Source: Candidatus Eiseniibacteriota bacterium
GTDB taxonomy: Bacteria; Eisenbacteria; RBG-16-71-46; CAZAMP01
Direction of reading: 5' to 3'
Assembly: GCA_965224245.1 (NCBI GenBank)
Contig: OZ245046.1
Location: 2,944,001 to 3,008,000, forward strand
Length of the DNA stretch: 64,000 bases
Positions 34,586 through 50,857 of the stretch are shown here, in pieces. Under the pieces are notes generated by a model. The model had not been told where the DNA came from. It made no database searches and was given only the letters and a program-made list of their open reading frames with translations. Each line of letters opens with the position of its first letter. Within the stretch, counting starts at the first letter, position 1. The translations under genes and the position numbers were made by a program.

Positions 34586-37500
34586 TCACGCGCGACGCCC
34601 CCCGGCCCGGAGGCGCGCGAACCGGGCCTCGTCCAGGCGGCCGGCCAGGAGGTCCGCCACGCGCTGCCTCCGCTGCGCGGCGCTCGTGGCCGGCGGAAGG
34701 CCGACGCGGTCCCGCCGGGCATCCGCGGCGCCGAGAAACCGGGCGGCCAGCCGCGGATGGGAGTCCGCGAGGAGCTCCGCCACCGCCTCCAGCGTATCGG
34801 CCTCCCCGACCGTGTCCCCGATGTCGCGCCGCTGGCGGAGGCTCTCGAAGAGATGCGCGCGGGCGGCGTCTCGGTCGCCACGGGCGAACGCGATCGCCCC
34901 CAGGTTGTGATGGGTCTCCGCGGTGCCGCGGCGGTCGTCGAGCGTGCGCCGTACCGACAGCGCCTCCTCGTGGTACTGCCACGCCCGATCCAGGTCACCC
35001 AGGCGCTCGGCCACCGTGCCCAGGTTGTTCAACGAGTTGGCCTCCGCGACCCGGTCGCCGAGGTGCCTGCGCAGCTCGAGGCTCTCGAGATAGTGTCGCT
35101 CGGCGGTCGCGTAGTCGCGCTCGCGCTCGGCGACGACGCCGAGGTTCAGGAGCGACGTCGCGACCTCGCCGTCGCGTCCGGCCTCGCGATGCATCGCGAG
35201 CGTCGTCTCGAACGCGCGCCGAGCCTCGTCGTGGCGGCCCGCGAAGATGTGCACGACGCCGAGGTTCCCCATCGCCCGGGCCACCAGGAGCTCGTCGTCC
35301 AGCCGGCGTCCACGTGCGATGCACGCCCGATAGCGCGCGGCGGCCGCGTCGACGTCGCCCTGATCCAGCGCCAGGTTGCCCTCCCAGTTGAGGGCGTTCC
35401 CCAGGACCGTGGGCGCCGCGTCGTCGGGAACGGCCGCGATGGCCTCGCTGAGACGGCGACGTCCCTCGGACCAGAGGCCGCGGACGTGCCAGTACTGGCC
35501 CATCCACGTGGCCACGCGCAGCGCGACGACCGGATCGTCGGCGAGCGCCCGCTCCATCGCGACCACCACGTCGGGAAGCGCCTCGTCGATCCGGCTCAGC
35601 CAGGCCGCCTGCTCGGGGCCACGCACCCCGTCGGCCGCCCGCGAGACGAGATCCACGACGACCGCACGGTGCCGCTCCACGAGCGCGGCGTCGGGGGTCG
35701 ACGTGCGGACGGCGTCCGCGACGCGCGCGACCACGCGATAACGGAGACCCGACGCATCGGGTGAGGGCTCGTTCCGCCCGCTGGCCGGAACCGCGTCGAC
35801 CAGCGCCATGTCGCAGAGCTCGAGGAGCGCCGGCATCAGCCGCTCGGGCGGCAGCGCGTCGTCGGCGCAGACGCGGACCAGGGCGTCGGCCCCCGCCGGG
35901 GACGCGAAGATCGGCATGCGCGACACCAGGCATCGTGCGCCGGCCGACAGACGGTCGAGGCTCCAGGCGATGGCGCGGGTCACGGCGTCCTCGGCGTCCG
36001 GCGGTGCGAGGGTGTGGAGCGCGGCCTGCACGCGCGACCGTGCCGCCGCCGCCAGCTCGATCGCGAGCGGGAACCCACCCACGCGGCGGCAGACCTCGGC
36101 CACCTCGGCCAGCTCGACGGGATCGGCCGGATCGAGGACGCTTCCGTCGTCGGGGGACCGCGCCGGCTCGGCTCCACTCGCGTCGCGCGATGCCACGTCG
36201 AGAAACAGCGCGATCGCGGGCGAGCGCGCGAGCGTGGCCGCATCCCCGCCCGGGGGCGGCACCGGCAGCGCGCGCACACGCACCGTGGTCGCCGAATCGA
36301 GCGGCGCGCGCGACGTGACGAGAAGACGGGCCCGGGGACCATCCGCGAGATCGGTGACGAGTCGGGCGACATCCTCGAGGAGCGCATCGGCCTGGTCGAG
36401 GACGACGAGCCGGCCGGTGGCCTCGATCGCATCGCGCACGGCGCCCTCGAGCGAGCGATCGCGCCCCTCGCCCACGGCGAGAGCGCGGGCCACCCGCAGC
36501 AGCACATCCGACCGGTCCCGTGCGCCGGCGAGATCGACGACCACCGACCCGCCGGGCGCGACCGACCGGTCCCCGTGCACGGCGCGGGCCACCTCTAGGG
36601 CCACGCGCGTCTTGCCGACCCCGCCGGGCCCGACCAGCGCGACGCACCGATGCGTCACCAGAAGCGCGGATACCATCGCGATCTCGTGCGCCCGCCCCCG
36701 CGTCGGCGTGCGAGCGCCGTCCACCGCGGGATCCATCGGCGGCACACCCGCGTCCGCGCCGGTCCCCGGCGGCTGCCGCGCCAGGGCGAGCGCCTCCGAG
36801 AGGATCCGGCGGCACGCGTCGGCGCTTCGGGGGCGGTTCGACGGATCCTCGTCCAGCGCTCGATCGATCATGTCCGTGACGGCCGGGACCCCGTCGAGGG
36901 ACGCCGGCCAGGGCGGGCGCGCGGGGCCTTGCCCCGTCACGTCGGCCCAGCGGGATCCGGTCAGGCACTCGAAGAGCACGACCCCGAGCGACCACACGTC
37001 GGCGCGGGTGTCGATCTCGTCGCCGCGGCGCGCCTCGGGGCTCACGTACCCGGGCGTGCCCACCGGCAGCGCCGACTCGCCGCCGAGCTGCGCGATCCCG
37101 AAGTCGAGGACCTTCGCGGTGCCGGCCGGTGTGACCACCACGTTGGACGGCTTCAGATCGCGGTGCACGAGCCCCCGGGCGTGGGCTTCGGCCAGCGCGA
37201 GCGCGACGTCGTGTCCGACGGCGAGCGCCCGCTCGAGCGACATCAGCCCCGCGTCCAGGACCGCGCGGAGCGTGCGCCCCTCCACGTACTCCACGACGAG
37301 CCGGGGCTCGGGGTCGGACACCTCGAGCGCCAGCACGCGCGCGATCGCCGGATGGTCGAGCGACGCCAGCACTCGGGCCTCGCGGGCCAGTCGGCGCCGG
37401 GCCGACCGGGCACGCGGCTCGTCGAGGAACTTCAGCGCAACGCGGCGACCGGACTCGTGCCCGGTTGCCAGCCACACTTCTCCGGCGCCGCCCGCGCCGA

Positions 37501-38158
37501 GACGTTCGACGAGCACGTAGCTGCCCGAGCGCGCGCCCGGGATCCGCCCCCGCGAGGGGGTCGGCTCCCCGGCGGCCTCGTCGTCTCGGTCACCTTCGGT
37601 CGGCTCACCCAGACGCTCGCTCAGGAACTCCCGCGCACGCGCCCAGTCGCGCTCGATCGTGCGCGAGGTGACACCCAGGAGCTCGGCGGCGTCCGCCGCA
37701 CGGAGCCCGCCCAGACCGATCAGCTCCACGACGCGCGCCTGGCGCGGGGACAGCCGCCCGAGCTCGGCGAGCGCGTCCTCCAGCGCGATCGCGTCGCACA
37801 CGTCGCCCGGCGGCGTGCCCCCGATCGACGACAGCGACACGTGCGTGACGTTGCCGCCCCGCTTGCGCCGTCCCTTGCCGCGCGCGTGATCCACCAGCAG
37901 CCGTCGCATCGCCTTCGCGCTGAGCGCCAGGAACTGCCGCCGCGACCGGGCCGACACGTCCGCGCCGGCGCTGACCCGGATGAACAGCTCGTTCACGAGG
38001 CCCGCGGGATCGAGCGTATGATCGCGGCGTTCGCCGATCATCTGTCGCCGCGCGATGGACAGCAGCTCGTCGTAGGCCGCGGCGAACGCATCGGACAGGA
38101 CCGACCGGGCCGGGGCGTCGGTGTCGAGACGCGCGAGCAGGCGTGTGATCTCGGTCAT
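34586..38158 (-). CDS. ECF sigma factor - Ser/Thr kinase - STAND ATPase - TPR fusion
   Basis: YDEL..AMRRLLVDHAR..KRGG; GAGGAG, HRDLKPSN, DFG; GPGGVGKT; repeated LNNLG TPRs. Confidence 0.88.
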   Translation of the reverse strand: MTEITRLLARLDTDAPARSVLSDAFAAAYDELLSIARRQMIGERRDHTLDPAGLVNELFIRVSAGADVSARSRRQFLALSAKAMRRLLVDHARGKGRRKRGGNVTHVSLSSIGGTPPGDVCDAIALEDALAELGRLSPRQARVVELIGLGGLRAADAAELLGVTSRTIERDWARAREFLSERLGEPTEGDRDDEAAGEPTPSRGRIPGARSGSYVLVERLGAGGAGEVWLATGHESGRRVALKFLDEPRARSARRRLAREARVLASLDHPAIARVLALEVSDPEPRLVVEYVEGRTLRAVLDAGLMSLERALAVGHDVALALAEAHARGLVHRDLKPSNVVVTPAGTAKVLDFGIAQLGGESALPVGTPGYVSPEARRGDEIDTRADVWSLGVVLFECLTGSRWADVTGQGPARPPWPASLDGVPAVTDMIDRALDEDPSNRPRSADACRRILSEALALARQPPGTGADAGVPPMDPAVDGARTPTRGRAHEIAMVSALLVTHRCVALVGPGGVGKTRVALEVARAVHGDRSVAPGGSVVVDLAGARDRSDVLLRVARALAVGEGRDRSLEGAVRDAIEATGRLVVLDQADALLEDVARLVTDLADGPRARLLVTSRAPLDSATTVRVRALPVPPPGGDAATLARSPAIALFLDVASRDASGAEPARSPDDGSVLDPADPVELAEVAEVCRRVGGFPLAIELAAAARSRVQAALHTLAPPDAEDAVTRAIAWSLDRLSAGARCLVSRMPIFASPAGADALVRVCADDALPPERLMPALLELCDMALVDAVPASGRNEPSPDASGLRYRVVARVADAVRTSTPDAALVERHRAVVVDLVSRAADGVRGPEQAAWLSRIDEALPDVVVAMERALADDPVVALRVATWMGQYWHVRGLWSEGRRRLSEAIAAVPDDAAPTVLGNALNWEGNLALDQGDVDAAAARYRACIARGRRLDDELLVARAMGNLGVVHIFAGRHDEARRAFETTLAMHREAGRDGEVATSLLNLGVVAERERDYATAERHYLESLELRRHLGDRVAEANSLNNLGTVAERLGDLDRAWQYHEEALSVRRTLDDRRGTAETHHNLGAIAFARGDRDAARAHLFESLRQRRDIGDTVGEADTLEAVAELLADSHPRLAARFLGAADARRDRVGLPPATSAAQRRQRVADLLAGRLDEARFARLRAGGRRA

Positions 38159-42673: not shown

Positions 42674-44035
42674 CTACCAGTGGCGGATCATCTCCATGTA
42701 TGTCTTCGCATCGAAGTCGGGCGAGTTCGCCTGATCGTGGCAGCTCGTGCAGGTGTTGGCGGTGAGCAGCGTCTTGTCGCCCGGATGGAGCGTCCCCATC
42801 TGGTGACACGCCTCGCACTGCACGGCGGTGAGATCGGGCTTCATCGTGGCGCTCTGGAAGCCGGTCTTGGCGCCCTTGCCGGTGACGTGACAGGACACGC
42901 AGTCGTCGTTGGACTCCATGCCCATGTCGACCAGCGTGGCCCAGGCCCTCGCGTGCGGTCCCTGCTGCCACTTCTCGAACTCGGTCTGGTGGCACCGCGC
43001 GCACGTGTCGGCCCCGAGGAACCGATCGACCTCCTGCTGGTTCTGGAACTCGGCCTGCTTCGCCAGGCGCTCTTCCTTCTGAATCCGCTTGATCTCGGCG
43101 TCCATCTCGTTGACGAGCGTCTGGACGTGCGGATCCTTGCGCGCGGCCTTCTCGTCGAGCTGCTGCGAGCGTCCGTCGTACTGCACGACGGTGCCGGTCT
43201 CATCGACCTCCATCTCCAGCCACGCGATGTACTGCCCTCGCGTACCCGGCCGCACGATGATCGTGCTGCCGACGGTCGTGTGCGTGGCGCGCAGCCCGCC
43301 CCGGTGACCGAGCACGGCCACGTCGATGTCGGGTTGACGGCGCACGACCGAGTCGGTGAACGCCAGCTCCATCTGCGAGAGCAGCACGAGCACGTCGCAG
43401 CCCGCGTCCTTGAGGTCGCTCACGATGCGGTCGGCGCTGGTGAACACGTCGTCGGCGACCAGGGGCTGAGGCGCCTGGACCGCGCGTTCGACGACGTCGC
43501 TGTGCATCAGGCTGAAGATCCCGACCTTGTGGCCGTCCATCTCACGAATCGTGTACGGCTCGGACACGGGGGCCCGCACGCCGTTCCTCTCCGTGTAGAC
43601 GTTGCTCAGGAGCACCGCCGGCTGCCCCTCGGCCAGCTCCGCGAAGTGTTGCACGTCGCGGCGGAGCTCGCGCTCGCCGGGAGACACGGCGTCGTAGCCG
43701 ATGCGCTTCATCGTCTTGAAGATGAAGTCGGACTTGAGCTCGCCCCACGTGGGGTTCAGATCACCCCAGTTCCCCGCATCCACGACGAGGGTGTTCTCGG
43801 TGATCGCGCGAATCGAATCGACGAAGGTAGCCCGCCGGGCCAACCCACCTTTCTGGTTCTTCTTTCACCCGCACTCTTCGATCTCGCCGTTGTTCGAGGC
43901 CGTGGCGAGAACGTACATCTTGGTGACCTTGCCGGTGGGCTGTGCCGCCTGGGCGAAGTGAGGGCCGATCGCGAGCGTTCCGATCGCGAGGCCGCCGAGC
44001 GCGATCGCACTCAGCAGCGCGTGTGGCTTCTGCAC
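42674..44035 (-). CDS. Secreted UshA-like selenoprotein with tetraheme cytochrome c domain (TGA at codon 57)
   Basis: GAAGGAG RBS, GTG, signal peptide, GEIEECG-TGA-KKNQKGGLARR in frame; CARCH, CVSCH, CEACH, CTSCH. Confidence 0.85.
43824..43851 (-). promoter_or_regulatory. Candidate bacterial SECIS hairpin
   Basis: AAGGU..GGCCC GGC GGGCU ACCUU starting 13 nt after the UGA. Confidence 0.5.
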
Positions 44036-44255
44036 GAGTTGAGCTCCTTCGTGAGAGACGAACGATCCGGATCATCTTCCCGGGTGGTTCGAAGCGTGCG
44101 ATACCCTATCAGAGCGCGGGCGTGCGAGTCGAGCGCCACCACCCGGTGGTGCGCCGACATCCGCCGCCGACGCCGACGCCGAACGTTAACAATCCAGATC
44201 GGCTCCTGGATCGCCCGCTCGGGCGTATTTACATGGCCTTTACGACGACCGCGGG

Positions 44256-45689
44256 TCACTCGGACCGGACCGGCTCGTCTCCGCCGGCCGGTCGGTGCAG
44301 GATCCTCGTCCAGTACGACGCCGGGTCGAACGCCGGGGAGTTCTCCGCGTCGTGACACCGCCGGCATCGCGACGGCTCCACCGGCGGAACGGCGCCCCGA
44401 TCCGGATGACCATCCGGCACGGCGTGACACGCCGCACACGCGACGCCTCGCGCCCGCGAGCGTCGCTCCGAGGCGCTGGCACCGTCCGGCTCATCGGTCA
44501 CCTCGCCCGCGCCGGCGTGATCCGGTGGCCCGGGCGAGGTATCGTGACAGCTCACACAGGCCGCCTCGTCGGGGAATCCTGCGTCCACGAGCGTCTCGAA
44601 TGCGCGGGCATGCCGCGTGGTGCGCCAGTGGGCGTGCTCCGTCTCGTGGCACGACGCACAGGCCGCGTCCCCGGACCCGGCGGGCGACCGCTCGGAACCG
44701 GCTCCCCGGGCGCGCGCCGCCGCTTCGAGCAGCTCCCGTCGGTGGGCGGCGGCCCGCCGGGCCTCGATCTCGCGTACCCAGCGGTACACGGCCACATCCT
44801 GGGGAAAGCTCTCCAGGAGACCGTGCGTCCGCCCCGCGACCTCGGCCAGGCCGGCGGCGTCCATGCGCAGGACCACCTCGGCCAGGTAGCGACCGCGATC
44901 GCCCGGATGAACGTACACGGTGCCGTCCGCGACCCCATGCGTCGGATCGGCGGGGGGCGAGTGGCTCGACACCACCACGTCGAATCCGGCACGGCGGCCG
45001 AGCGGTCGCACGTCGCGGTGCGGCACGTGGGCGAACAGGACGAGCGCATCCGCGCCCGCGGCGCGCATGTCGGTCGCCACGGCCCGAGCGGCCTCGGCCG
45101 GATCCCGGACCAGGAACCCACCGACCGGCGGCGGGAGCTCGTCGACGAGCCGGGGGGCGATCACCGACGAGACCCCGACCACGAGGTCCCCCATGGGAAC
45201 CAGCACGTACGGACGGAAGGCCGCCCGGACGCTGTCGCCGGACTCCCGGAACAGGTTCGCGTTCACGAAGGGAGGTCCGGCCGGGTCCTCGGCGGCGCCG
45301 CGGGCGAGCTCGAGCGGGCCCACGCCGGCTGCCCGGTAGCCTTCGCGGGCCAGGTACACCCGGATGGAATCGGAGACACCGATCGCATCGTCCCCGCGCA
45401 CGCTGAAGTCGCCGGCGTCGAGCAGGACGAGCTCGCCCCGGAGTCGCAGCGAGTCCACGAGCGCCGAGCGCCGCGCGAGCCCGCCCTGCGGGCCGGACCG
45501 GCACCCGCACTCGGCGATCTCGCCCGCGACGGCCGCCGTGACCGCGAAACGCGCCTCGCGATATCGACCGGCACCCGGCGGCGTGCGGGCGGCACACGCG
45601 AGCCACGAGCACGCGACCACGACCGCCGTGATCCTCGCCAGGCGGGCCGTTGCGGGCGCGCCGGCGCGCGACTCAGCCCTCCTGCTCAT
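44256..45689 (-). CDS. UshA-like lipoprotein with tetraheme cytochrome c domain (Cys paralog)
   Basis: WLAC lipobox; GEIAECGCRSGPQGGLARR; DAGD; CASCH, CVSCH, CAACH, CRRCH. Confidence 0.85.
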   Translation of the reverse strand: MSRRAESRAGAPATARLARITAVVVACSWLACAARTPPGAGRYREARFAVTAAVAGEIAECGCRSGPQGGLARRSALVDSLRLRGELVLLDAGDFSVRGDDAIGVSDSIRVYLAREGYRAAGVGPLELARGAAEDPAGPPFVNANLFRESGDSVRAAFRPYVLVPMGDLVVGVSSVIAPRLVDELPPPVGGFLVRDPAEAARAVATDMRAAGADALVLFAHVPHRDVRPLGRRAGFDVVVSSHSPPADPTHGVADGTVYVHPGDRGRYLAEVVLRMDAAGLAEVAGRTHGLLESFPQDVAVYRWVREIEARRAAAHRRELLEAAARARGAGSERSPAGSGDAACASCHETEHAHWRTTRHARAFETLVDAGFPDEAACVSCHDTSPGPPDHAGAGEVTDEPDGASASERRSRARGVACAACHAVPDGHPDRGAVPPVEPSRCRRCHDAENSPAFDPASYWTRILHRPAGGDEPVRSE

Positions 45690-48600
45690 AGAAGATCTCC
45701 GGCAGCGCCTTGACACCGATCCAGAACTGGTAGCTCACCGCCGACCCCAGGAGCTGTCGCGAGAAGCGCGCCTCCCAGCAGTGGAGATCGCGCACGATCG
45801 ACAGCGTCGAGCTCGTGACCTCCGTCTCTCGCAGATCGGCCGACAGGTTGTAGCGCACGCTCCACTTCGGGGTGACGGGAACGGTGAAGCTCCCGTTGGC
45901 CGTGCTCGTGTAGTTGCTGGGATCGGCGCCTCGCCGGTACGTGGCGCGGAGCGTGGCCGCCCAGGGCAGTCCGGGCTGCGCGCGTTCGCGATCGCCGAGG
46001 AGATCGCGACGGCGCTCCGGCACGTCCGACACGTCCTCGGCCAGGAAGTCCGATCCGGCGGGGAGCGCACCCGCGGTCTTGCCGCTGAGGCTCAGGTTGC
46101 CCGAGATCGACAGGCTGGTGAGTCCTTCGCCGTAGACACCCTGGGTCCCCGAGAAGTCGAGGTTGAACAGCCGGTGTGGCCGCAGACGTCCGCTGGCCGT
46201 GATCGGGGACCAGGGCTGCTCGTCGTCCTCGAAGTCGTAGCCCGAGGACAGGTTGATCGACATGAAGTCCTTCACCGTCCGGGGCTCGTCCTCGCCGGAG
46301 GCGAGCCTCGCATCGAAGCTGTTGTTCAGCGTCAGCGAGAGCCGGCGCGACAGTGACGAGCCGCCGAACGAGATGCCGCCCACGGACGGGAACCGGCTCC
46401 GGCGGATTCCGTCGTCGTCGACGTAGGAGCCGGCGGTGTTCTCGGGCGTGTACGTGAACGTGGCGGCCGGCTGCATCACGTGACGAAGCGCCACGATGGG
46501 CCCCACTCGGCGGTTGAACGTGCCGTAGACGGTCGTGCTGGTGCGCGCGCCCGCGGACCAGCGTCCGGCGCGTTGCCACTTCTCGCCCCGGTTGTCCTCA
46601 TCGAACAGGAACTCCGAGTAGCTGAAGCGAGGCGACACCGCGAGCGGTCCCAGGCTGCGGTTGTCGGAGACGTCGACGTTGTGACGGGCGGCGAACGCCG
46701 CGGAGGCGGGGCCCTCCTCGATCTCCTGCTCGATGCGCGACGCCCGGAACGCGTATCCCCAGCGCATCGTGCTCAGCAGCGGCAGGAAGCCGCCGTCGCG
46801 TCCCGAAGCCTCGCGCCCGATCGGACGCTGGCTGAGGCTGAACGACACCGTCGGGAGCGTGTTCGTGACCGCGACGCGGCCGGAGTCGGCCTCGAGGTCC
46901 TGCGTGCGCGACAGGTTCAGCCCCAGCGACGCACCGGTCCACCGGCGTGAATAGGCGAGGTTGGACGTGAGCACGCGATCCACCTGCTGCTCGATGTTCT
47001 CGCCGAGGCCCTGGTCCAGAAGAAACCGGCTGCTGCTGACGAAGTTCGCGTCCACGGTCAGCGTTTGATCCGGTCCGAGATCCTGCGCGTGCCGGGCGCG
47101 GAACTCCCAGTCCCGGCTGCGCGGCTCGGCGTCGGTGTAGAACCGCTCGCGCGGGGGGCCCTCGGCCGACAGCGAGGTGTACACGGCGCCTTCGAAGGCG
47201 TGCGTGAGCTTGTAGCGCGTGTCCAGGTACCCGATCCAGCGGGGGCCCTGGGCGCGGGAGCCCGAGAAGCCGGGCGCCTCGAAGTCGACCCACGCACTGA
47301 GATCCGCGTAGTCGCTGAACGCCCAGTAGTAGCCGACGTTCCGGAGATAGCGACGCCGGTCGTCGATGCCGATCTCGTAGCCGAAGCGCAGCCAGCCCGA
47401 GCGCCGTCCGCGCTCGATCGGAAACAGGAAGTACGGAACGGCGAGAATGGGAATGTCGGCGACGTGCAGCACCACCGGCCGTCCCACGACCTTGTCCTTC
47501 AGCCGGATGCGCACCTGGGGGATCAGGAAGTGGAAGTGCGGGTCGTCACGATCGCAGGTGGAGTACTTGCAGCTCTCGACGTAGAGTGTCTCGTCGTCGA
47601 TCTTCTTGATGCGACGTCCCTGGAAGTAGCCGCCGTCGAGCTCCGTCTTGCCGTGATGCACCACCCCCTGCTTGGCCTCGACGTCGTAGTCCATGGCGAC
47701 GCCGGTGACCACGCCGCCGGGATCCTCGAGCGACGGCTCCTCCGAGGCGACGATGGTCTGGTTCCGGGTGTCGAAGACGACGCGGCCGGCGCGCAGCCAC
47801 GCGTCCTGGTACTGCACGGACGCGGCGTCGCTCAGCATCAGGTCGCGAGTGGTCATGTCGTAGGTGACCTCCTCGGCCGCGTACGTGACCTCGTCCATGC
47901 CCCCGGGAAACAACGAGTCGGGCGGGACGACCGACTCGAGGGGCGCGATGCGGGCCGCCCAGGCCACCGAGTCCGAGACCGCGGAATCGGGCGTGGCGAC
48001 GACCGGCTCCGGCTTCGCCGCGAAGACGTCGCCGAGTCGCAGCACGCTCACCGAGTCCGCTCCGGCGCTCTGGCGGCCGGGCTCCAACGCATCTCCGATC
48101 GAGACCGAATCGGGCGCAGCTCCCGGGCCGGACGCCTCCCGGCCCAGCGGCGGGCCGGCGTCGCCCGGCGGGGCGGCGCCGGACCCGGCGTCGGCCGTCT
48201 CGCCGGCATCCGTGCCGGACATTGCGCCGGCGTCCGTGCCGGGCATTGCGCCGGTGTCGGCATCGGGCGGCGTGCCGGCGTCGGTGTCGGGCGTCGCGCC
48301 GGCGTCGGTGTCGGGCGGCGGCGTGTCGCGCTGCTCGTCCGTCGCCGGAGATCCTTCCTCCTCGCCGGGCTCGATCCCATCCGCGGCGCCGCGATCCCGC
48401 GCGCGATCCCGCGCGCGATCGCGCGCGGGTTCTGCCGTCGCCGCCGTGTCGGGTACCGCCGGGGCCGTGCCGTTCTCCGCCGCGAACCAGTAGCGGCCGG
48501 TCGCGTTCCCCTCCAGGATCACCGTCGACACCTGCCCCTCGTGGAACAGGAGCCGGATGCGATCGGCGTCCGCGTGATTGGCGCCCGTGCCGAGGGCCAG

Positions 48601-49719
48601 GTCGAACGGGGACGGCGTGTAGTCGCTCGTCGCGTTCCCCTCGAGCTGGAGGCTGTCCATCACGCCCTCCGAGAAGTGCGCGACGGCGTCGTCACCGTAG
48701 GCGATCGTGCGCTCGCCGCGCTTCTGCCCGGTCTTGGGCTCCTGACGGACGATCACGCGTCCGTGCGCCTCGAGGCGCTCGATCTCCTGATTCCGGTGGA
48801 ACACGACGAGCGTGTCGGCGCGGATGTTCGCCACGGGGTCCCAGGCCTCGGGCGATCCGGTGAGCCGGACGTAGCCGGCGTCCTCGTCGAGGAGCGCGTG
48901 GTCGGCCCGCGCCTGCACGTCGCCCTGCCAGATCCGGACGGTGCGGAGCGCCTCGGCCCGGGCCGCCTGACGGGCCAGCCGGAGCTCCTCGGCCCGCACG
49001 CGGAGCGGCCGGGTGGTGCCGTCGCTCGTGGTCTGGAGGATGGGGTCGCCGGTGACGATGGTCAGGTCGGTGTCGGCGTTGTAGACCATGCGCTCGCCGG
49101 TCACGCGGGAGCCGGACTCGACGTCCCGGGCCACGACGTCCACGCGCGCCACCGCCACCCCCGACGCTCGGTCGTAGTCCAGGCGACGCGCCGTGATCGT
49201 GCCCACCGTGTCGGCCACCGTCACGTGCCCCCACATCCTGACACGCTCCTCGTCGCGCCACACGTGGGCGGTGTCGGCCTCCGCCCGGAAGAGGCCGTCG
49301 TGAGCGCGCACGTCGCCGACCAGCACCGCGAACGCGTTCCGGCGGTGGTAGACGAGGCTGTCGCAGCGGACGGTCGAGGAGCCCTCGACCAGGAGGACGT
49401 GCCCCACGAGCGTGGCGATCTCGCGCCGGTTGTCCCAGCGCCCGCGATCGGCGGTGACGGTGAGGGAGTCGTGCGTGATCCGGACGTCGACGAGCTCGCC
49501 GACGTCCGCAGCGCCGCGGGAGCCCCTGAACGTGTCGGCCTCGATCGTCCAGGATCGTTCCGAGCGCTGGGCGGCGAACACATCGCCGATCGCGCCGATC
49601 CAGAGCGCCGCCACCACGCCGAGGAGCGTCGCGCGCGCGCGACGCCTCGCACACGCGGCCCTCCGGGCACGGTCGCGCTCGGGGTGGCGGCGGTCGGTCG
49701 AACGAAGACGCTGGATCAT
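45673..49719 (-). CDS. lptD: LptD-like LPS assembly protein with multiple N-terminal LptA/OstA-like domains
   Basis: YSTCD..PHF, RRSG, RDLHCWE; repeated L.G.V/A jellyroll strands; signal peptide. Confidence 0.8.
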   Translation of the reverse strand: MIQRLRSTDRRHPERDRARRAACARRRARATLLGVVAALWIGAIGDVFAAQRSERSWTIEADTFRGSRGAADVGELVDVRITHDSLTVTADRGRWDNRREIATLVGHVLLVEGSSTVRCDSLVYHRRNAFAVLVGDVRAHDGLFRAEADTAHVWRDEERVRMWGHVTVADTVGTITARRLDYDRASGVAVARVDVVARDVESGSRVTGERMVYNADTDLTIVTGDPILQTTSDGTTRPLRVRAEELRLARQAARAEALRTVRIWQGDVQARADHALLDEDAGYVRLTGSPEAWDPVANIRADTLVVFHRNQEIERLEAHGRVIVRQEPKTGQKRGERTIAYGDDAVAHFSEGVMDSLQLEGNATSDYTPSPFDLALGTGANHADADRIRLLFHEGQVSTVILEGNATGRYWFAAENGTAPAVPDTAATAEPARDRARDRARDRGAADGIEPGEEEGSPATDEQRDTPPPDTDAGATPDTDAGTPPDADTGAMPGTDAGAMSGTDAGETADAGSGAAPPGDAGPPLGREASGPGAAPDSVSIGDALEPGRQSAGADSVSVLRLGDVFAAKPEPVVATPDSAVSDSVAWAARIAPLESVVPPDSLFPGGMDEVTYAAEEVTYDMTTRDLMLSDAASVQYQDAWLRAGRVVFDTRNQTIVASEEPSLEDPGGVVTGVAMDYDVEAKQGVVHHGKTELDGGYFQGRRIKKIDDETLYVESCKYSTCDRDDPHFHFLIPQVRIRLKDKVVGRPVVLHVADIPILAVPYFLFPIERGRRSGWLRFGYEIGIDDRRRYLRNVGYYWAFSDYADLSAWVDFEAPGFSGSRAQGPRWIGYLDTRYKLTHAFEGAVYTSLSAEGPPRERFYTDAEPRSRDWEFRARHAQDLGPDQTLTVDANFVSSSRFLLDQGLGENIEQQVDRVLTSNLAYSRRWTGASLGLNLSRTQDLEADSGRVAVTNTLPTVSFSLSQRPIGREASGRDGGFLPLLSTMRWGYAFRASRIEQEIEEGPASAAFAARHNVDVSDNRSLGPLAVSPRFSYSEFLFDEDNRGEKWQRAGRWSAGARTSTTVYGTFNRRVGPIVALRHVMQPAATFTYTPENTAGSYVDDDGIRRSRFPSVGGISFGGSSLSRRLSLTLNNSFDARLASGEDEPRTVKDFMSINLSSGYDFEDDEQPWSPITASGRLRPHRLFNLDFSGTQGVYGEGLTSLSISGNLSLSGKTAGALPAGSDFLAEDVSDVPERRRDLLGDRERAQPGLPWAATLRATYRRGADPSNYTSTANGSFTVPVTPKWSVRYNLSADLRETEVTSSTLSIVRDLHCWEARFSRQLLGSAVSYQFWIGVKALPEIFYEQEG
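48200..48316. repeat. About 5 imperfect 24-bp coding repeats (PDTDAGAT-like)
   Basis: Visible in DNA and protein. Confidence 0.75.
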
Positions 49720-49912
49720 GCGGCCATCTACGCTTCGAGGTGTCGGTCGATCGAGACGCGGGGGTCCGCGCCGTCGGACGGAGCGCGAGCGCTGGGACGA
49801 TACCCGGCCGGGGCCCAGAGCGCGACCCTCCTCGACACCGCACCGGTGAGACGCGTCGATCCCGCTGCCGGTTCCGCACCGTCGAAGGCGCGGCCCGCTC
49901 CGCCGGGCCGCC

Positions 49913-50857
49913 TCAGCGGACCGCGAACTCGTTCGCGTACATCGCCGCGCCGATCGCGCCGGCCTCGGCTCCGAACGCGGACGGCACCACACGCGGCTTC
50001 TGATCGGTGGGCGCCATCGTGTGCGCGTGCACCGCCTCGGCGACCGGCCCGAGCAGCACGTCCCCCGCGCGGGCCACACCCCCACCGATCACCACGCGAT
50101 CGACGCTCAGGAGATTGCAGACCCCGGCGAGCGCGATGCCGAGGATGCGCCCGGTCTCGTCGAACGCCCTCCGCGCGGCCCAGTCGCCGCCGGCGGCGGC
50201 CTCGGCGATGCGCTTGGGGGTCAGCGCGTCGATCTCCGACCCGAGAATGCTCTCGGCGCCGCTCTCGACGAGACGCCGCGCCCGCTCCACGATCCGCGCG
50301 TTGCCCACGAACATCTCGAGACACCCCCGTCCACCGCACGGGCAGCGCGGCCCGTCCACGTCGACGCACATGTGACCGATCTCGCCCGCGGTGCCGAACG
50401 CACCCCCGAAGAGTCGACCGCCGGCCACGATGGCGCCGCCGACGCCGGTGCCGAGCGTGACGTACAGCCCGCACCGCGCGCCGTGCCCGGCGCCCAGCGC
50501 GGCCTCGCCGAACGCGAACGCGTCGGCGTCGTTGATCAGGGTGACCGGCAGGCCGGCGGCCTCGGCCAGGAGATCGCGCAGCGGCACGTCGCGCCAGCTC
50601 GGGAGATTCGGGGAGAGGCCGACGATGCCGCGCTCGACGTCGATGAGCCCGGCGCACCCGACCCCGATCGCGGTGGCCTCGGAGCCGGCGAGCTCGGCGA
50701 CCTCGGCCACGGCGGCGGCCAGCTCGGCGATCAGCCGGTCGACGTCCTCGCCGGAGCCGGTGGGCACGCTACGGGTCAGCCGGACCCCGTCCGCCGGCGC
50801 CATGGCGACCAGCTTCACGTGCGTGCCGCCGACGTCCATGCCGACGACGAGGCTCAC
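49913..50857 (-). CDS. ROK family sugar kinase
   Basis: DVGGT, NDAD, GTGVGG, GEIGH, CPCGGRGCLE. Confidence 0.92.
   Translation of the reverse strand: MSLVVGMDVGGTHVKLVAMAPADGVRLTRSVPTGSGEDVDRLIAELAAAVAEVAELAGSEATAIGVGCAGLIDVERGIVGLSPNLPSWRDVPLRDLLAEAAGLPVTLINDADAFAFGEAALGAGHGARCGLYVTLGTGVGGAIVAGGRLFGGAFGTAGEIGHMCVDVDGPRCPCGGRGCLEMFVGNARIVERARRLVESGAESILGSEIDALTPKRIAEAAAGGDWAARRAFDETGRILGIALAGVCNLLSVDRVVIGGGVARAGDVLLGPVAEAVHAHTMAPTDQKPRVVPSAFGAEAGAIGAAMYANEFAVR

Follow-up and report, generated by a model that had tools for sequence, protein, structure and literature searches.

A tetraheme UshA-like gene in an Eisenbacteria genome, cut in public annotation at a probable selenocysteine codon

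This report concerns a gene on the minus strand of a 64,000-nt stretch of DNA from a Candidatus Eiseniibacteriota bacterium (GenBank assembly GCA_965224245.1, contig OZ245046.1, positions 2,944,001 to 3,008,000), which we refer to as the window (G000:C1:2944001-3008000 in our own coordinates, within a genome of 6.94 Mb that is 97% complete). We conclude, with a probability of about 0.85, that the gene at 42674-44035 encodes one exported selenocysteine (Sec) protein of 453 residues, that its in-frame UGA is decoded by way of SelB, tRNA-Sec and a hairpin in the message, and that the product belongs to the UshA-like CxU family. Public annotation cuts the gene at the Sec codon. Selenoproteins of this family are already known and have been catalogued since 2008; what we add is an annotation fix and a clear description of the selenocysteine insertion sequence (SECIS) for a family already on record.

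The minus-strand frame that runs from a GTG at 44035-44033 to a TAG at 42674 is open save for a single TGA at 43867-43865. The open reading frame listed for this region (42674-43843, minus strand, 389 aa) has a TTG start and does not include the signal peptide, and the public database call is the same truncated product (P0002). An initial annotation, made from the sequence alone, had extended the frame upstream to the GTG at 44035, with a GAAGGAG ribosome-binding site and a signal segment ending in AQA, and had predicted that standard annotation would truncate the gene. The extension proved correct on re-reading, and the 389-aa public call is the truncation it foresaw. Read by eye, the N-terminus VQKPHALLSAIALGGLAIGTLAIGPHFAQA/AQ resembles a signal peptide of the Sec (secretory) type, and in a structural model made with AlphaFold2 from a 40-sequence alignment this region forms a helix (residues 4-21) followed by a low-confidence segment (24-29). 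The features of the corrected gene model and its paralog, all on the minus strand, are as follows.

42674-44035, minus strand: full predicted selenoprotein coding sequence, 453 residues plus TAG, with TGA 43867-43865 read as Sec; alignment with homologs continues through the TGA and covers residues 1-453
44044-44050, minus strand: Shine-Dalgarno-like GAAGGAG, 8 nt ahead of the GTG, from the sequence
43946-44035, minus strand: predicted Sec-type signal peptide, residues 1-30, ending in AQA, assigned by eye
43865-43867, minus strand: probable UGA selenocysteine codon, residue 57, in the motif C55-G56-U57, placed by the homolog column
43841-43843, minus strand: TTG used as the ordinary gene-caller start, within the 5' arm of the hairpin, yielding the truncated 389-aa product
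43824-43846, minus strand: candidate SECIS-type hairpin, GGGTTGGCCC, loop GGC, GGGCTACCTT, inside the G-G-L-A-R-R-A-T codons, recognized by covariation and codon choice
43136-43930, minus strand: 5'-nucleotidase/UshA-fold (calcineurin-like) domain, residues about 36-300, metal ligands not conserved
42677-43033, minus strand: cytochrome c554-like tetraheme domain, residues about 335-453, with four CxxCH motifs, from the PF13435 and c554 matches
44256-45716, minus strand: upstream tandem paralog, with ECGC replacing the Sec motif and four CxxCH motifs (same family match, 141.9 bits)

The assignment of UGA 43867-43865 as a selenocysteine codon is well supported by sequence comparison: the Sec machinery of the genome, the alternation of TGA with Cys codons among homologs, a covarying hairpin and contigs free of variants all agree with the recoding that the initial annotation had proposed. 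The genome has a tRNA-Sec (71.9 bits against a gathering score of 47; called by ARAGORN as tRNA-SeC with anticodon tca), SelB (324 bits, or 353.4 with its C-terminal stretch, against a cut-off of 242), SelA (515.8 bits, over its cut-off) and SelD (378.4 bits to TIGR00476, over its cut-off, with one in-frame TGA), so that all four components suggested as a check are present. The selD gene lies at G000:C1:4218184-4219107 on the plus strand (locus L018) and, with its single in-frame TGA, probably encodes a selenoprotein itself. Elsewhere in the genome TGA serves as an ordinary stop, ending both the paralog at 44256-45716 and another at C1:5533, and an altered genetic code is therefore not the explanation and was rejected. 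Nor is the codon an assembly artefact. Logan contigs from two runs of one sample (X1 and X3), possibly the source sample, are identical over the whole 1701-nt stretch, a 151-nt contig from a different sample (X4) spans 43813-43963 with 0 differences, and none of four runs lists a variant at 43865-43867; neither TGC nor TGT, the codons that sequencing reads might have revealed, appears in these independent contigs.

The TGA sits in the context GEIEECG-U-KKNQKGGLARR. The neighbouring paralog carries GEIAECGCRSGPQGGLARR, reading G-E-I-A-E-C-G-C at the Sec column, and the alignment of the two genes agrees with the earlier placement of the TGA opposite the paralog's Cys. Within the class, 40 of 41 genomes have a match when the target genome (G000) is counted, or 39 of 40 relatives, and the best match holds exactly one TGA in 37 of the 39 matching relatives; the exceptions are G016, whose best match has no TGA, and G019, whose match is a fragment with 2 TGA and 1 TAA. 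Among 25 genes aligned from 20 fetched loci, 23 have C-G-U at the same column. A wider scan of one genome per species gave 80 loci, and in 76 genes from 74 of them the Sec column could be read: TGA in 34, TGC in 21, TGT in 21 and no other codon, which is the Sec/Cys alternation that had been proposed as a check. The nearest of the 80 loci come from metagenome-assembled genomes (MAGs) labelled Candidatus Eisenbacteria, and further loci are labelled Krumholzibacteriia, Scalindua, Blastocatellia, Planctomycetota, Armatimonadota, Nitrospirota and more. The family is large, spread over MAGs of many labelled phyla and nearly universal in the class of the target.

The closest full-length database proteins (53-56% identity) read Q-C-G-C, and a 59%-identical database protein is truncated and begins MARRATF, as does the window's own call. 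Among 1.84 billion cluster representatives (50% identity), 377 relatives were found at E <= 1e-30. Among the best 150 of these, 87 cover the motif, 71 of them reading C-G-C and most of the others different CxC variants, and the remaining 63 are calls that start past the Sec column. Such calls fit the routine truncation of Sec forms, and some may be fragments at contig ends. Three longer proteins (P0121, P0126 and P0153; 1188-1207 aa) begin with an extension of ~800 residues, and the family region makes up only the C-terminal ~400.

The same genome holds six genes with the motif, three with TGA and three with Cys. The TGA genes read E-C-G-U (the target), P-C-G-U (C1:2360077) and P-C-P-U (C1:5175300). 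The P-C-G-U paralog (G000:C1:2360077-2361276, plus strand; L025:601-1977) has four hemes, the P-C-P-U paralog (G000:C1:5175300-5176079, plus strand; L029:1384-2394) is a heme-less, lipoprotein-like form, and the GCCCGGCGGGC hairpin core of the target recurs in both. Tandem family pairs recur, with second copies beside the main gene in L036, L044, L045, L046, L051, L071 and L073, often as a heme-bearing long form and a heme-less short form (321-362 aa). Sec may be present in both members of such a pair, which might form a heterodimer.

The initial annotation had also claimed a SECIS-type hairpin 3' of the TGA, which covariation across Sec forms bears out, and had placed the start of the stem-loop 13 nt downstream. 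A hairpin is indeed found there, but the conserved helix, of 10 bp (43846-43824), starts 18 nt past the UGA rather than 13, and its apical loop starts 28 nt past the UGA. In an alignment of all 61 Sec forms collected (59 distinct), 86.6% of the cells are paired as against 78.2% in shuffles, a value reached by 0 of 500 shuffles, and sliding the partner strand along gives pairing of at most 56.1%. Both sides have changed in 6 of the 10 helix pairs, in 43 cells altogether; in other phyla, for example, GCCC/GGGC becomes GCAC/GTGT or GCTC/GAGC. Where the third base of the Leu codon meets that of the second Ala codon, the 23 class sequences have GC in 12 cases, GU in 5, CG in 4, UG in 1 and AU in 1, and in none is the pair broken. 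Codon choice follows the same division. All 27 Sec forms examined use GCC for Ala and 25 of them CGG for the first Arg. None of 8 Cys forms combines the two; there Ala is GCG in 5 and Arg CGC in 6. On this comparison the RNA signal is carried by the synonymous sites of the G-G-L-A-R-R-A codons.

According to the reading we favor, the hairpin at 43846-43824, built from those codons, would recruit SelB and tRNA-Sec to the UGA. Bacterial SECIS elements of the fdhF type are likewise coding-region hairpins just downstream of the UGA with a G in the apical loop. The target differs from them in that its apical loop is a triloop, G-G-N, and its helix coincides with the codons of a conserved protein motif. 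A SECIS helix written in the codons of a conserved motif, with covarying synonymous sites, offers a practical marker for Sec forms of the family.

The mature protein consists of a 5'-nucleotidase-fold domain, a long linker helix and a c554-like tetraheme domain. Its only Pfam match is the cytochrome c554-type domain PF13435 (E 8.2e-14; 52.8 bits against a cut-off of 20.8). The AlphaFold2 model has a mean pLDDT (predicted local distance difference test) of 87.5 and a pTM (predicted template modelling score) of 0.72, and a Foldseek search of the PDB with it places CD73 and bacterial 5'-nucleotidases first (E 2e-21, TM 0.55 on the query, ~317 aligned columns). A family profile matches the Thermus thermophilus 5'-nucleotidase (2.4e-37), cytochrome c554 (6.5e-22) and SoxB (~1e-19), and the heme domain alone aligns with c554 over residues 5-101 with three heme motifs in register (E 4.1e-10). 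The four CxxCH motifs lie at residues 345-349, 379-383, 407-411 and 429-433. An UshA-like fold and four c-type heme motifs had both been read from the sequence at the outset, and the structural matches and the motif count agree with them. With four CxxCH motifs, a predicted signal and cytochrome assembly genes of the Ccm type in the genome, the product has the predicted makings of a multiheme cytochrome c.

NF041198, "UshA-like (seleno)protein", gives the best match among NCBIfam models, split over two stretches (235.5 bits, E 1e-69). In a search of the genome frames, model positions 12-284 fall on the N-domain and 361-517 of 519 on the heme region. The target shares with NF041198 (UshA_like_PCGU) the two-domain architecture and a Cys-Gly-Sec/Cys motif at the same place, but scores below the cut-off and reads E-C-G-U where most relatives read P-C-G-U, the meaning of the NF041198 motif being taken from the model name only. 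Strictly, then, the target is a close relative outside the NF041198 equivalog, a member of an Eisenbacteria-type clade just under the cut-off. Because this clade falls below it, the NCBI naming rule probably skips these genes, and Eisenbacteria-type selenoproteins are probably being missed systematically. A second model, NF049981 ("UshA-like (seleno)protein family 2"), gives a weak match to the N-domain (36 bits, E 4.9e-9); its cut-off, however, is 140 bits, its motif is CxxU, and its 262 positions include no heme domain.

The earlier reports of UshA-like selenoproteins to which the initial annotation referred do exist. A CxU selenoprotein family labelled "COG0737, UshA-like" is listed in passages of Zhang and Gladyshev 2008 (PMC2398784), with 76 Sec and 92 Cys sequences in the Global Ocean Sampling (GOS) data, and it reappears in tables of the reviews PMC9312934 and PMC13188914, the latter of which, from 2026, has an entry "UshA-like protein, NF041198, CxU" that ties the family to NF041198. 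By homology, CxU motif and the presence of Cys homologs, the target sequence fits this COG0737 family. It has in common with it COG0737-type homology, CxU and Sec/Cys alternation; the family's passages of PMC2398784 mention neither a heme domain nor a function. Our literature search, which covered main texts and not supplements, found no functional study of UshA-like, multiheme or Eisenbacteria selenoproteins, only catalogues. The family, for which this search yielded no function, would repay biochemical study, although it is not newly discovered.

Several observations weigh against the reading of the gene as a SelB-dependent selenoprotein of this family. The NF041198 score of 235.5 bits is below the curated cut-off of 275, as are those of 10 of 10 other class members, the best at 268.2. 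Folded alone, the 71 nt around the TGA are no more stable than shuffles (z = 0.12), and neither a SECIS nor any other relevant family turned up when 43700-43950 was compared with Rfam at E <= 10. Ordinary 5'-nucleotidases, too, have the G-G-x-A-R-R protein motif whose codons make up the helix (GGVARR in 2z1a), so that part of the nucleotide conservation reflects protein constraint. Clustering of gene neighbourhoods over 81 loci revealed no obvious redox partner or substrate clue. Finally, 3 of the 61 Sec forms (L095, L104 and L123) disrupt the apical pairs of the common hairpin. These three (L095:5160-5231, L104:6133-6204 and L123:508-579) are out of its register and carry G-G-L-A-K-R or G-G-L-S-R-R variants; their MAGs bear the labels Deltaproteobacteria, Deferrisomatales and proteobacterium, and their SECIS may be shifted or of another kind.

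Across 40 relatives the only invariant residues of the N-terminal domain are C55, G56, U/C57, G63, G64, R67 and G88, with D86, the bridging Asp of motif II, nearly invariant. The columns of the DxH His, the GNHE Asn and His and two later His ligands vary, and in a family-profile alignment to the T. thermophilus enzyme (2z1a) TASNNG and GERE occupy the places of DxH and GNHE, so that the degeneracy of the nucleotidase metal ligands noticed at the outset holds both within the family and against 2z1a. The Cys-Gly-Sec/Cys triad is the one family-specific invariant feature of the domain, and in the same alignment it lies in a loop adjoining the former metal site. At the other end of the protein all four CxxCH motifs are invariant, and besides the four proximal His the only conserved ones are H361, H417 and H452; with three conserved distal His for four hemes, as in the c554 fold, one heme is left without an assigned sixth ligand. 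Heme II of cytochrome c554 is five-coordinate.

From this anatomy we infer a periplasmic Cys/Sec redox site wired to hemes, which its parts would fit. The C-x-U pair would cycle between a selenolate/thiol and a selenenylsulfide state, or form an adduct with substrate, and would exchange electrons with a respiratory or periplasmic electron-transfer chain by way of the four hemes. Its substrate might be a small periplasmic sulfur, selenium or oxyanion species, or a thiol. A bolder proposal is that the triad does not act as a free redox pair and that, together with the heme lacking a conserved distal His, it makes up a composite heme-selenolate, or heme-adjacent selenol, center on a gutted nucleotidase scaffold. 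We regard this as a long shot; if true, the protein would be a periplasmic enzyme of a new kind, acting in the chemistry of sulfur, selenium or oxyanions, and it might work as a Sec/Cys heterodimer with the tandem paralog.

Of the other ways to read the gene, the one that survives best grants that it encodes a genuine selenoprotein and proposes instead that C-x-U and Asp86 bind a metal or a metal/sulfur species, with no selenenylsulfide cycling, the hemes feeding that center. The placement of the triad loop beside the former metal site in the 2z1a alignment, the near invariance of D86 and the three distal His (H361, H417 and H452) conserved for four hemes would all suit such a center, whereas no other conserved ligand set is visible and CxC and CxU motifs are known to act as redox-active dithiol mimics. 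We consider metal binding somewhat unlikely.

Whether the N-domain might still be a phosphoesterase, either a nucleotidase or a SoxB-like hydrolase in which Sec is incidental, can be judged from the same residues and from the known enzymes. Homology to 5'-nucleotidases and SoxB is clear. Like UshA, CD73 and the T. thermophilus 5'-nucleotidase (2z1a, 2ush, 4h2i), the target has an N-terminal metallophosphatase fold, and it shares with them GG-x-A-R-R, DAGD and the Gly and Glu of GNHE; unlike them, it is without most of the metal ligands and the C-terminal substrate-binding domain and has the C-G-U triad and a tetraheme domain. SoxB thiosulfohydrolase (TIGR04486; 2wdc, 4uwq) is periplasmic and of the same superfamily (E 1e-19 with the family profile; 62.2 bits to TIGR04486), but that score is far below the TIGR04486 cut-off of 550 bits, and SoxB keeps a dimanganese site and has neither hemes nor CxU. 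Nitrosomonas cytochrome c554 (1bvb, 1ft5), which resembles the other half of the protein in its four hemes and aligned heme motifs, is a free cytochrome and not, as here, a fused domain. Since the ligand positions vary (the DxH His, the GNHE Asn and His and two later His in the 40 relatives), the N-domain is not a conserved dimetal phosphoesterase, and it is the C-G-C/U triad that is invariant; a retained hydrolase seems to us very improbable.

A different objection accepts that the UGA is read through and supposes that a near-cognate tRNA or some other recoding route inserts Cys, Trp or Arg. That 42 of the 76 homologous genes are Cys forms does mean that Cys is functional at this site. Such a route is hard to square, however, with a G-G-N-loop hairpin held at a fixed distance from the UGA and covarying as an RNA structure, with a GCC-CGG codon pair present in 0 of 8 Cys forms, or with a genome that has tRNA-Sec, SelA, SelB and SelD, and we give it very little credence.

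Least credible of all is that the TGA is a true stop, leaving a 56-codon leader ORF or a dead N-terminus ahead of a separate 389-aa cytochrome gene at TTG 43843, or else a pseudogene with a fresh nonsense mutation: standard gene calling does yield exactly the 389-aa product, and TGA does end the two paralogs named above (44256-45716 and C1:5533), but 34 of 76 homologous genes have TGA at this one column and the others TGC or TGT, conservation continues across it, the TTG sits within the conserved hairpin, the full Sec machinery is in the genome, and the truncated product has four CxxCH motifs and no signal peptide. The last point favors one protein over two, because c-type hemes are attached only following export.

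In the window the gene is accompanied by its paralog and by genes for LptD, a convergent PhoD-like protein, an extracytoplasmic function (ECF) sigma factor and MgtE, and the neighbours that recur over the 81 loci are only lineage-bound: LptD at 17, a ROK kinase at 10 and, in other phyla, a DUF1573 protein at 19. Directly upstream of the paralog pair lies the gene for an LptD-like protein (45673-50085, minus strand; 1470 aa, with LptD_N and LptD_2 domains), whose stop is overlapped by 44 nt by the longest ORF of the paralog and which is itself preceded by a ROK-family kinase (49913 to about 50900, minus strand). This LptD/ROK order is conserved in 17 and 10 of the 81 loci, respectively, in MAGs of the Eisenbacteria and Krumholzibacteria type.

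At these 19 loci of other phyla a gene for a DUF1573 (Ig-like) protein stands directly upstream on the same strand, for example at L093:4781-5827 and likewise in L078, L097, L101, L103, L116, L121, L125, L127, L129, L131, L136, L138, L139, L141, L146, L147, L149 and L150, which come from MAGs labelled Planctomycetota, Armatimonadota, Nitrospirota and others. From its position, the DUF1573 protein is a possible partner in those lineages; in the target genome no DUF1573 match reaches the cut-off. Farther along the window, at 34586-38158 on the minus strand, a 1190-aa protein combines ECF sigma-factor, Ser/Thr protein kinase and AAA domains with tetratricopeptide (TPR) repeats.

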